64,000 nt of DNA from Euglena gracilis (GCA_039621445.1 CP154954.1:40727572-40791571); one strand, 5' to 3'; counted from the first letter of the stretch, positions 183 through 45,800 are shown. The notes: generated by a model not told the origin, from the letters alone. Program-made: numbers and translations.

Positions 183-737
183 CAGGGCAGAACGGGATTC
201 GGCCAAACAGCCAGGATGGTGTGTCGACCCCCCCCACCACCTCTTCCCGCATTTCTGGGAACATCAGTTTTTGGACCCCCAAGAATTTTTTCCCGGCGCC
301 TTTTGCGCCGGGTGTATTTTGGACCCATTTTGGGACCCATATGGGAGGTCCCCCACCAAACCCCCCCCCAGACCCCATTTTTTCACACATTCCAAAATCT
401 CAATATGTTCTCAAAATTTTGATTCTGAGAGGTTCTTGAAGCAAAAAATGCCATTGAAAATCCAAAAATCTTCTAAGACAAAAAAATGTCAGTAAATTTT
501 ACTTGCACCAAAATTGGTCGATTTTTTCGACCTTCATTTTTTCACCTTCATAAAAATTACCAATTTTAAAACCTGAATTTTTTGAGTTTTTTTTGTGAAA
601 ACCATCAAATTGGGTTCATCTTTCAATTTTTTTGAAAACTCTCCTGGCCAGAATCCTCATTTCCCCAAAATTGGTGAAACTGCTGTGGTGGGTGGGGGAG
701 GGTCGACCCCCCCACCAGGCCTTCCCGTTCTGCCCTT
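183..737. mobile_element. hAT-like MITE (CAG-type TIR, 8-bp TSD)
   Basis: TIR CAGGGCAGAACGGGA / TCCCGTTCTGCCCTT; flanks CGCCCCAC (175-182) and CGCCCCGC (738-745), 7/8 identical; non-coding AT-rich interior. Confidence 0.8.
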
Positions 738-1250
738 CGCCCCGCCCAAACACACTGCACACAGAACAGACAACACACACACATACTCACACAACCAATA
801 CGCACGCATGCACATGCTCATCGGTCCCCTATGCACCATGCCCAGCCTTGCCGCCAGTCCTTCCGGCTGACCTCCTCCCATCGCCCGCTGGCCACGGCCA
901 CCCCTTTTCGGCCCATCCACTTCCCACCCCCGGCCCACACGATGCGTCCTATGGGACAGAGGGGGGCCGTGCCTGCGTTCCACAGTTCCGGACGATCCAT
1001 CTCCGTCCCCCCCTTCCGCTGTCGGTCGGCGTCCCCTTCTGCGCGCCTGGGCTACGGTGTGCCCCCGCCCCGGCGTCCCCAAACCCCGGAACGGGCGGCA
1101 TTCCTGTCCCTCCCGCACCCCATCCTGGTTTTCTGCCGGATGACATGTGTTTCTGACATTGACACACGGTGCCAGGCTTTAACCCCCGCGGGTGAAAGGA
1201 AGCAGTCGGGGCGGGTGTGGTCTGTGCCCCCCCCCACCGCGCTCTCCCCA

Positions 1251-41464: not shown

Positions 41465-42802
41465 TTTTTGGGAAATACCCTCAGACGGCCCGATTTTAAT
41501 TAAAGATCGTATTTGGACCCACTTTGAATCCATGAGCGCAGAACAGAATTTGAGCTTCGGCCAAGACGAAATAGGCCATGTGTATACAATTTTGCATTGA
41601 TTGTATCAAGGTGTGTAGTTTTGGATGCCAGACTTCGAGAAAAAGGGAAGTAATCTGGGGCCGAGCAGGAAGATATGCGTAAGATGTTCTTTCAAAAACT
41701 GCGGACGGGCCATTTTTTCCAAGTGAGCCCAACCATATTATGGTTGGGTCTGACATTCACACCAATGTCAATAATAATATTGGTTTGGGTCCATTGCTCT
41801 TCTAGATGCATGCAGTGTAAACCAAAAAGTCCAGTTTTGGGGGGTGAACCTGCATATGCACACACACACACACATACACACACGCACACATCTTAATATA
41901 CATGTATATTTAACACATAATACACATTTGAATACATGCGCACATACACATTTGAGAATTTCAAAAGCACAAATCTCTGTATTACCCATAAAAATTAATT
42001 TTGGGTCAAATCAATTTTTTTTATTAATGGACCCGTCACATTACTCCTGTCCCAATGTTCGCACACCAATGCTATTGTGGGTTTTTTCCGAGTTAGCATG
42101 CAGCACTGTCCTCTCCACCTGGGAAGGGGGGGCATCGATCGGACACAAGAGACCCAACATTTGGATTTCATTGGGGGAAGCAAAGACTAACACATGAAAT
42201 ATGCATTATCCAGTGCTTTCTTTTCTTGGTTCATGTCCTCATGATTTCCAGAAGTGGGATGAAATTGCCACAGCAACAAGGCTTTTGTACTATTGGAGGG
42301 CCCCTTTGCGGGCCTCCAGTCATTCAGGGCAATTGTCACACCCCATTCAGGGGACAGGAGCCAAACAAAGTAAGTTTTTTTTTGCCAGAGTGTTTGCCTT
42401 GGCCGCTTGTCTGCAGAGTTTTGTCGCTTTCTCTCGTGGCCGCCCCTTGCCTTCGGCGCCAGCGACTCCCTGGTGGATGTGCCGGGCCCCCGGGCAGGCC
42501 TTTGCTGAAGGTCTTTTCCCCCAAGGGAAGCATTTCACTGCCTTGCTGGGCCAGGGCCAGGATGGGCTGGAAGTGGCCAGGAAGCCCCCCCCCCCCCCGC
42601 TGGGCTGCAAACGGGTCGACTTCGATGGTTTGGCGCCTTTCCTTGGCCACCGCTTTTCATGGCGGGTTCTTGGTGCCCCCCCCCCCCAGATTTCAGGGTT
42701 GGGACAGCACGGCCCGGTTCCCACCAGCCCGAAAGCCGACCGCCCCAGAGATGGCCCCCGGGGCCAGTCCGTGCAGCAAAGGCCGGCAGGTGGCCACACG
42801 GG

Positions 42803-45800
42803 ATGTCGGCAGACCCGTTCCCGCCGCTGCCGCCGGGCTGGGAGTGCCGCCTCCTGACGAGCGGCCGGTACATCTTCCTGGACGAGGCGTCGTCCACCAC
42901 CACCTTCAGCCACCCAGGGAGGGCGCTCACATGCACGTGTGCGCACAAACACACACCCGAAAGAAATGATTCATTCCCTTCTTGTGACTGCTCTCAATCG
43001 CTTTCAACTTTCCTCAAGTAGATGGAGTGGCTTCTTTGTTCCAGATTTTTGGCCCAGATTTGGGGGTGAACCATTCGACCAAGTTAGCTTCTGTTGGTCT
43101 GTAAGGAGCGCCTGCATCGCTCTCCCGGCGCATTTCGATGGCAAACCTCTCCTCATTCTGTTGTTGGCATTTTGCGTGCCATAGCCCCCCCCACAGGGAT
43201 GTATGGGAAGCCCGTTGGCATTGAGGGAGGTAGGTACAACTCTCCCACCCCCTAGATGTTGGGAGGGGCTGGACTCCCCCAGGCATAGATGGGAAGCCCT
43301 TCGGTTTTGAGGTGGGTGGTAGGGGGGGGGGGGTCCGGACCCTGGGGGGTGAGGTGGTTGGGGGGGGGTCCGGACCCGCTCCCCTCCCACTGGATGTTGG
43401 GAGGGGGAACCAGACCCCCCACCCCCCCTCCTTGGCTGGTTCCCTCAGCGCCAGAAAATGCAAGAAAATTTTCTCTTTTCGCTCACTTTTAAACACATTG
43501 CACTTTTTTTTTTTGATGGTTTGGTGTTTTCCACACAAAAAAAGATGTTCAAAAATTAAAAAATCACAAAGAACATTATTGGATTTTTTTTTCAAAGAAA
43601 AATCAGGAATTCTTCAAAAAACTGGCCTGGTTTCCGGAACCATTTTTCATAGAACCAAAAATTTTCCCAGCCCCTTTCGGGTTGGGGGGGGTCCAGACCC
43701 CCTCCCCAGGGCTTCCCACACATCCCTGCCCCCGCCCCCCCCCCACCCTGTCACCACCCGACCACGCGCCAGGAGTACCACTCGCCCAGCAAGCCGGGGG
43801 TGGGCCGGGCCGCCCTCGTCGCCTCGGGCCCGGCCGCCCCCCGCCCGGCGACGGCCTCCGTGGGGCTGCGGAAGCCATGCAGAGGGGAGGGGTTTTGCAA
43901 CGACCCTGTTCCGTGGGTGCTGTGAGGTTTTGACGGTGTTTGCAAAGGTGATGGGACAGACTCAAGCGTTTGAAACTTGTGAACAGTTTGGATTTGCCCA
44001 CAACCTTGGGTTGAAACAGATCTATTTTTTCTGTCCCTTGTCGTATCTTTTTCTTGAAATGCTTCTTTTTTTCAATTGTAAGTCCTGTTTCTGATGTTTC
44101 CCCAAACCACATCTTTGCGATGGGAACGGATGAAGGCAATTTGTGCACAAACATGCGAAACTACGCATTCAGCCACATATGAACATACTGCTTTCCTCAT
44201 ATTTCCGTACACTCGCCTTTCTATTTATACTTCTCTGCGTATTCTCCCCCATTCACCATGAAGTTTCCCATCCTCCCGTATCATCTTTCTTCCCGTTCAC
44301 TCAAACAGCCCGACGCCGCCGCAGCGCCACGCCGCCATTCCCCGACCTGCCCCCCGGCTGGGTCTACGGCGTGGAGGGGGCGTTCTTCGTCTTCCACCAG
44401 CTCGGGTCCGCGGTGTGCCAGTCCCGCCACCCCCTCACCGGCCGCCAGTACGCCGCCCCCCACGGCATGGGCAGCCCCGCCGGACCCCCCAGAGCGTTGC
44501 CTCCCGCCCCTCCCCCTTCCCGCCTGTGTCCCCGCCTGGCGGTTCCGTTGATGGTCGGTGCTCTGCGGCCAGCCCGAGGCCATGTGCCGAAGGCCACGGC
44601 GGGCCCCTCCCGCGGCCGGACGCCATCCGACCACAACTCCCCCCGCCCCAACGCGGCCCCGGCCCAGTTGCGGCCGCCCGCCCCCGGCAGTCCGATGGGC
44701 CGAACCGCCACCCCGGACAAGGTGAGGACCAGCACTGGCCCCACACATATGCGCAGCCTGGGAGCGAAAGCGAGAGTGAGAGAACTAGAGAGAGAGAGGT
44801 GTGTGTGTGTGTGTGTGTGTGTAGGTGTGCTTGTGTGCGCGAGTGGGTGTGGGTGTGTTTGTGAATACACACACATGCGCATGCAGGCACGCACGCACAT
44901 GTGTGTGTGTGTGTGTGTGTGTGTGTGTGTGTGTGTGTGTGTTTCGTTGTTGGGGTTCTCCGCTGGACCTCTTGCCGCCATTCCCCTGGCCTCCCCCCCC
45001 ACCTCAACGCACGGGCCCCGCGCTGCTGCGAGCTCGCTCCGCGGAGCGCAGCGCCCGCCCGGCCGGCAGTCTCCTCATGAGCCGCACCCAGGGCTGCCCA
45101 GGACTCCGGCAACTCCACGTAGCCTGTCGTTCGAACGTCCATTTTTTCCCATTTGTTTCTCGCCGGGAAGGAGTTGCTCTTGCAAGCTTTGATACAGGTT
45201 GGGGTCCCCCCCCCCCGCCTCCCGAATGTCCGCCCCCTCCCCACTGACCCCGACTGTTATTTTCATATTTTTGTGTGGTTGTTCATATTATTATATAGTC
45301 GTTTAATTTCATGTATCACACGTAGTTGAATCACAGTAACTTTTTGTATGCACATGCATTATATTAACCCCCCCCCCCCAAATACCCCCCCCCCCAAATA
45401 ACACCCCCCTTGGGGGCCGAATTCGCCCAAATAAGACACCGAGACCCCCACCCCCCGTGCACAACGTTCATAAGCAGATGTATTTCTTGTCCAGGAGTGC
45501 TCACGCAGACATGGTTTTATATATATACATATATACATATATATGTATATATTTGAAGGTCAGAACCGATTGACGGAGGACCTTAGACAATTTGTTCTTT
45601 GGGTTCATTGCTTCGTGCTCCAAATTGCTCATTTTTCAAAAATGGGCTGACCGCATTTTGGCGGCGCTTTCCAGATGCCAGGGATGCACTCCTGGACAAG
45701 GTATCCTCCACGCTGATATCGGACATTGTTCGGGAAGAACCTGTTCAGGCAGCAGTGCCCAAATACCCCCCCTGGACCCCCAGTTTGGGTGCCCAAATAA

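Follow-up and report, generated by a model that had tools for sequence, protein, structure and literature searches.

The nonconventional introns of euglenids follow a terminal code, 5'-N3 CDG ... CH'G N5-6 | R (PMC12501133). Synthetic 50-bp sequences built solely from this code were spliced in vivo (PMC12501133), so the code looks sufficient. An origin of these introns from miniature transposable elements with inverted repeats (MITEs) has been proposed before (PMC3935182, PMC11282704, PMC12501133), and an 8-nt direct repeat was reported at a newly gained nonconventional intron (PMC4770533). In the available sections of these papers, the case for a MITE origin is made from intron ends, without named transposon families. 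A literature search of main texts found no paper naming hAT-like families with an 8-bp target-site duplication (TSD) for nonconventional introns; the supplement of PMC12501133, with its sliding distances of direct repeats, may show a peak at 8 nt. Here, we describe eleven short elements with terminal inverted repeats (TIRs), designated MITEs A to K in order of position, in a 64,000-nt stretch of the Euglena gracilis nuclear genome (GCA_039621445.1 CP154954.1:40727572-40791571; hereafter the window) with a GC content of ~55%. With a probability of about 0.7, these are hAT-like MITEs that have spread into introns and other non-coding DNA, that leave transcripts passively with their host introns, and whose ends geometrically match the nonconventional-intron code.

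The elements share several features with the nonconventional introns described in PMC12501133, PMC3935182 and PMC4770533: CAG at positions +4 to +6, CTG at positions -8 to -6, pairing of one end with the other, direct repeats at the borders, and spacers of 3 and 5 nt that together equal one TSD. They differ from these introns in that the copies in the window do not appear to interrupt exons; those that could be placed are intronic, three of four within GT-AG introns. Another described system is formed by the introners of Micromonas and dinoflagellates, DNA transposons with TIRs and TSDs that become introns upon insertion (PMC11282704). The elements in the window resemble introners in having the TIR and TSD of a DNA transposon. 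However, introners are removed by the spliceosome through sites derived from the TSD and the element, whereas the code matched here is non-spliceosomal.

The first-pass annotation of the window had claimed at least nine copies with TIRs and mostly intact 8-bp TSDs, from about seven families. The nine copies and their TSDs were upheld, with flanks identical at 8/8 positions in four copies, 7/8 in four and 6/8 in one. Two elements (G and J) were added in this analysis, bringing the flank counts over all eleven elements to 8/8 in five, 7/8 in five and 6/8 in one. The TIR score counts the positions, among the first 16 nt of each end, at which the two repeats agree. Scores of 13-16/16 were found in ten of the eleven elements, eight of these being among the nine originally claimed; the score of 19709-20002 (MITE E) was 4/16. 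Element size ranged from 111 to 791 bp, and the elements were considered non-coding on the basis of size alone.

MITE A (183-737, 555 bp) had the TIR CAGGGCAGAACGGGA (14/16), flanks CGCCCCAC/CGCCCCGC (7/8) and a 3' end reading ...CTT. MITE B (2573-3009, 437 bp) had a TIR score of 15/16 and a TSD of 7/8. MITE I (33075-33189, 115 bp; TIR 16/16; TSD GCTGGGAG, 8/8) was an internally shorter relative of MITE B, and the blastn alignments within this family had 95% and 88% identity. MITE C (14141-14263, 123 bp; TIR 13/16; TSD 7/8) formed a second family with MITE E (19709-20002, 294 bp; TSD CTCCGGAA, 8/8). The 5' end of MITE E was degenerate (AAGCTAAAAG, not CAG), but despite this terminus its interior and 3' end were 89-91% identical to MITE C. 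The left flank of MITE E (19689-19722) was a 12-bp perfect palindrome around a duplicated CCGGAA (ATACTTTTAGCT ccggaa AAGCTAAAAGTAT), which occupied the spot where the CAG terminus was expected.

The remaining five claimed copies were singletons by blastn, which gave seven families among the nine copies, as first proposed. MITE D (17676-18013, 338 bp) had a TIR of the type CAGAC/CAGGC...CATTTAGTGCGC (14/16; 22/30) and the TSD GTGCTGGC (8/8). MITE G (28244-28354, 111 bp; TIR 15/16; TSD CTGGGAGC, 8/8) shared this TIR type with MITE D and, by blastn, nothing more. MITE F (21218-22008, 791 bp) had the TIR CAAGCACCTAT (13/16) and a TSD of 7/8. MITE H (32746-32994, 249 bp) had a TIR score of 14/16 and the TSD CCCCCAGT (8/8), and MITE K (43194-43728, 535 bp) had the TIR CAGGGATGT... 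(15/16; 22/30) and flanks of 6/8. MITE J (34160-34428, 269 bp) differed from the others in its GG termini, with a TIR of GGCAGCCTCC... (GGCAG...CTGCC, 27/30) and flanks ATATATAT/ATATATAG (7/8). These flanks fell within a (TA)45 array (34069-34159) that directly adjoined the element, the duplication of MITE J itself being ATATATAT. Either MITE J was inserted into the array or the array expanded out of the duplication of MITE J.

Two chance-control scans were made, both with the satellite at 50400-51100 left out beforehand and with mononucleotide shuffles within 1-kb blocks. The strict scan (TIR of at least 13/16, first 5 nt exact, TSD of at least 7/8) returned six matches, five of them with a CAG or CAA start, against 0-1 (mean 0.375) in eight block shuffles. 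When the flanks in the strict scan were shifted by 1-10 nt, 1-3 matches were obtained, compared with six at the true flanks. The relaxed CAG...CTG scan, in which 32746 and 43194 were removed by a low-complexity filter, returned ten matches, compared with an average of 1.25 (range 0-3) when the sequence was shuffled 20 times.

Sequencing reads were aligned to positions 14001-34000 from three RNA runs, chosen by species label, and one run of DNA contigs (X1), at a minimum share of 1. In total, 80,939 contigs of X1 aligned to this 20-kb stretch. Summed word depth in X1, an indicator of very high repetition and not of copy number, was 3e4-9e5 in bins bearing elements compared with ~70-490 where depth was lowest, in bins that are apparently unique. 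Very high DNA depth was also found in bins without listed elements, indicating that more repeat families are present. Contigs from other loci lost similarity exactly at 14263, 18013, 32746 and 33075, which gives independent support for the termini. In both two-copy families, the copies occupied unrelated sites and each had a TSD of its own. Metagenomes were also searched with the first 18 nt of the TIR of the B and I family. Nine loci were returned, none of which matched past the 18-mer, and these are therefore chance matches. TIRs, a duplication of constant 8-bp length, small size and the occurrence of multi-copy families classify the elements as MITEs.

Assignment to a superfamily was based on TSD length and on the TIR starts of Ac and hobo. 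The TIR consensus of hAT elements is YARNG, and their TIRs typically begin with CAGGG or CAGAG. TIR starts in the window were CAGGG in A, B, I and K; CAGGC, CAGAC or CAAGC in C, D, F, G and H; and GGCAG in J. An 8-bp TSD and CAG(G/A) starts in combination favour hAT, and the CAG-type MITEs are most likely hAT-like. The Ac TIR begins with CAGGGATGAAA, and hobo is likewise a hAT reference; the start of MITE K, CAGGGATG, resembles the Ac terminus. The elements share with hAT MITEs of the Ac/Ds type the 8-bp TSD, short CAG(G/A) TIRs, small size, lack of coding capacity and presence in many copies. They differ in that five families carried C instead of G at TIR position 5.

CAG and CTG were both present in seven of the eleven elements, and in six of these seven a purine followed N5 on the + strand. 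The nonconventional-intron code was thus fitted on the + strand by six of the eleven elements (C, D, G, H, I and K). It was not fitted by A, B, E and F: the purine rule failed for MITE B on the + strand, and the TIR of MITE F (CAAG...CTTG) lay outside the CDG/CHG motif. MITE J fitted the code only with shifted borders and N6. Of the nine original copies, six had both CAG and CTG; among the others were 183-737 (CTT) and 21218-22008. The 3-nt and 5-nt spacers of the code add up to the length of one 8-bp duplication, so a cut at the code positions would take out the element together with one duplicate and leave the sequence as it was before the insertion. After such precise removal, none of the eleven elements interrupted an evident reading frame. 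Three of the eleven elements (C, G and I) were folded together with their flanks. In each, the ends paired in a hairpin, with z-scores from -4.45 to -6.06 (MITE C, -97.9 kcal/mol, z -5.9; MITE I, -87.6 kcal/mol, z -6.1; MITE G, z -4.45).

Four of the eleven elements (G, H, I and J) were placed in introns, all within a + strand pair of genes, a WD40 gene and a downstream WWE gene. The spliced-leader trans-splice acceptor (AG) of the WD40 gene was located at 27967-27968, with the first exon starting at 27969 and an ATG at 27978. Ahead of 27968, reads of three public RNA runs, 28 of them in run X22, carried ATTTTTTTTC. This agrees with TATTTTTTTTCG, given for E. gracilis as the conserved 3' terminus of its spliced leader (PMC4778363), and, taken with the intron literature, fits a Euglena-type euglenid. 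The first intron, approximately 28046-29022, contained stops in all frames between its flanking exons and held MITE G, which lay between the first exon defined by the spliced leader and an exon ending at 29139; the donor at 29139 was carried by 14 X22 reads. MITEs H and I shared a single GT-AG intron of 551 nt (32687-33237, + strand), identified from its in-frame flanking exons (...HAHHLNR | VKAVASGYNGDR...) and its GT and AG borders. A GT-AG intron of 1374 nt (33902-35275, + strand) held the (TA)n array and MITE J. This intron was verified by RNA: past 33901, 31 reads in each of the three RNA runs continued into a 30-mer found once in the window, at 35276.

All readable introns of the WD40 gene were bordered by GT and AG, and three of the four placed elements (H, I and J) were in GT-AG introns. 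MITEs G, H and I showed N3-CAG...CTG-N5|R on the transcribed strand of this RNA-verified gene. The first-pass proposals that the copies are nested in introns, and that intronic copies fit the nonconventional-intron code, were therefore borne out in part: the first for four of the eleven elements, and the second in full for G, H and I and for J only with the adjustments given above.

MITE H began 59 nt from the 5' end of its host intron and MITE I ended 48 nt from the 3' end, with the GT and AG of the host intact; MITE J lay 258 and 847 nt from the ends of its host. By position, at 48 nt or more from the splice sites, H, I and J would not have to be excised ahead of the host intron, whose removal is expected to come first. 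Since three of the four placed elements were inside ordinary GT-AG introns, the most likely fate of the intronic copies is passive removal with the host intron. The history suggested by the sequences would begin with several families of non-autonomous cut-and-paste transposons, bearing CAG(G/A)...(C/T)CTG TIRs, in a nuclear genome of the Euglena type. A staggered transposase cut would have left the 8-bp duplication flanking each copy, and amplification to very high copy number would have brought insertions into introns and other non-coding DNA. Intronic copies would then exit the transcript within the host intron. Because the element ends share the geometry of the published code, a transcribed copy is also a predicted substrate of the nonconventional splicing machinery.

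Several observations weigh against this reading. Passive removal with the host is inferred. The 15 joints listed of a total of 509 were all carried by the DNA run, and as even the gene's own exon-exon joints were not among these 15, they speak neither for nor against excision. RNA depth on MITE I was 2-8 compared with 20-37 on a nearby exon, and these reads could derive from any of the many copies. Support for the junction 32686|33238 consisted of the translation and the GT-AG borders, and gene context was established for four of the eleven elements, leaving seven without one. With respect to the superfamily, Pfam detected no transposase family, including that of hAT, and no clear family of any kind in 24 long or high-scoring reading frames of the window (10, 10 and 4). 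Furthermore, Merlin elements of E. gracilis likewise make 8-bp TSDs (PMC8101967).

The best-surviving alternative is an occasional side reaction, in which nested MITEs would be excised and circularised, with slowly processed pre-mRNA or the host intron after its release as the source, leaving the mRNA unaffected. The fit of G, H and I to the code and the splicing of code-only synthetic sequences are both consistent with such a reaction, and nonconventional introns are reported to end as circles (review, PMC11282704). Its scope would be restricted by the gap in time or location between the two kinds of splicing proposed in PMC6221363, which would limit access of the machinery to these RNAs. Released introns are usually short-lived, which counts against excision from them. 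Nested excision is plausible as a side reaction without consequence for the mRNA, but on balance we consider it somewhat unlikely.

A second alternative concerns the superfamily and would place the CAG-type families in Merlin or in another superfamily with 8-bp TSDs. Two Merlin families with 8-bp TSDs were described in E. gracilis (PMC8101967), and the GG termini of MITE J (34160-34428) are typical of Merlin, so that MITE J itself looks Merlin-like. For the other families the ends argue differently. Merlin TIRs have a conserved terminal 5'-GG (PMC8101967), whereas nine of the eleven elements in the window start with CA at one end at least and the CAG-type families have no GG termini. No DDE_Tnp_IS1595 protein was seen in the window. 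Membership of the CAG-type families in Merlin or another such superfamily is unlikely, and we favour placing these families near hAT.

The first-pass annotation had raised a stronger possibility, that nested MITEs are cut out by the nonconventional machinery before the host intron is removed, in stepwise, twintron-like nuclear splicing. Three of the four intronic elements (G, H and I) fit the published code completely on the strand that is transcribed, and the code looks sufficient from the synthetic introns. Within a single gene, introns of the conventional and the nonconventional kind were inferred to be "processed simultaneously" (PMC12501133), and 59 "overlapping" intron pairs were reported for E. 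gracilis (PMC11170887). The timing reported elsewhere points the other way. Removal of nonconventional introns was reported to follow that of spliceosomal introns, with a build-up of intermediates that have lost all conventional introns and retain every nonconventional one (PMC6221363). The same source also gives amplicon reads without any conventional but with all nonconventional introns as 75.5% and 61.8%. Late removal of nonconventional introns, together with hosts of the GT-AG type in three of four cases, argues against excision of the inner element first. The elements were also separated from the splice sites of their hosts by 48-258 nt or more, so that the host would not depend on their removal, and the literature search found no description of a nuclear twintron of such a kind.

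The plastid twintrons of Euglena (group II/III) are alike in being introns within introns. In these, the ribozyme structure of the outer intron is interrupted by the inner one, which has to be removed before the outer can splice. The introns described here differ from plastid twintrons, as the hosts keep intact splice sites and show no evident dependence. Inner-first excision is very unlikely, and removal of the nested copies along with their GT-AG hosts is preferred. The weakest alternative, that there are no transposons here and that inverted ends and direct repeats arose by double-strand-break repair, as PMC4770533 proposed to explain an 8-nt direct repeat where a nonconventional intron had been newly gained, or by intron transposition via RNA, is highly implausible given that related copies at unrelated sites each have a different 8-bp duplication and that the DNA run shows highly repeated families with sharp common termini.

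The gene models around the elements were of varying strength. Single exons of the + strand WD40 gene had weak WD40-type Pfam matches (E 0.02-0.04), and two exons of the downstream WWE gene, on either side of the verified junction, weakly matched positions 5-30 and 40-55 of the WWE profile. Longer homologous proteins sought with 29504-29875 yielded none at E <= 0.001. MITE K followed a WW-domain-like exon (42797-42913; Pfam E 0.0024) at a distance of 281 nt. With 11 exon pieces as its training set, a small codon model recovered the known exons and gave no convincing exons at ~14-27 kb, around MITEs C, D, E and F. RNA depth was <1 in the bin of MITE D and mostly <1 per mate orientation over 15.3-18.7 kb. 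Scans of the window with Rfam and for tRNAs returned no match. At positions 20387, 22876, 30751, 31079, 31129 and 33801-33869, most reads of the three RNA runs and the DNA run differed from the base in the window; at 30751 the mismatch was carried by 14/19 and 11/17 reads. These differences look like allelic or strain variation and not editing.

Additional repeats were found across the window. A (CA)236 microsatellite (4533-4996) lay between inverted CAGGGCATCC termini at 4418-5010, with flanks of 6/8; this is possibly a further MITE carrying a microsatellite, its score being within the range of the shuffles. Inverted-repeat pairs that open in a run of C (CCCCCCCTTGTCTAAGCACCA, without mismatch over 21 nt) were found at 16582-16996 and 23067-23433, and the latter, when checked for an 8-bp duplication, had none. 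The region 36000-42000 was AT-rich with a strong purine skew (at 38-40 kb, GC content 0.42, GC skew 0.34 and AT skew 0.36) and included an (AAAT)80 array at 38267-38597. On the - strand, a 341-aa open frame without a Pfam match was located at 39811-40833. A 118-bp tandem repeat of 2.9 copies (48980-49319) had long C and G runs at its bounds, and similar C/G-run palindromes were present inside several of the MITE families. At 50443-51037, a palindromic unit of 19 bp (CCATCATGACCCATGATGG), present in 31 copies as a satellite, formed long inverted repeats.

In its non-coding DNA, the window contains multi-copy families whose ends match the geometry of nonconventional introns exactly. Nested splicing alone would be a curiosity without effect on the mRNA, and the match between element geometry and code is the more useful result. 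A wider conjecture, which we hold to be quite doubtful, is that euglenid nonconventional splicing is an RNA-level excision keyed to hAT-like ends, with cuts 3 nt outside CAG and 5 nt outside CTG. If this were true, an element and exactly one 8-bp duplicate would be removed from any transcript, nested copies included, and nested copies would give rise to circles internal to introns and to stepwise shortening of the host intron. The match between these MITE ends and the code bears on how the nonconventional introns of euglenids arose and on what removes them.

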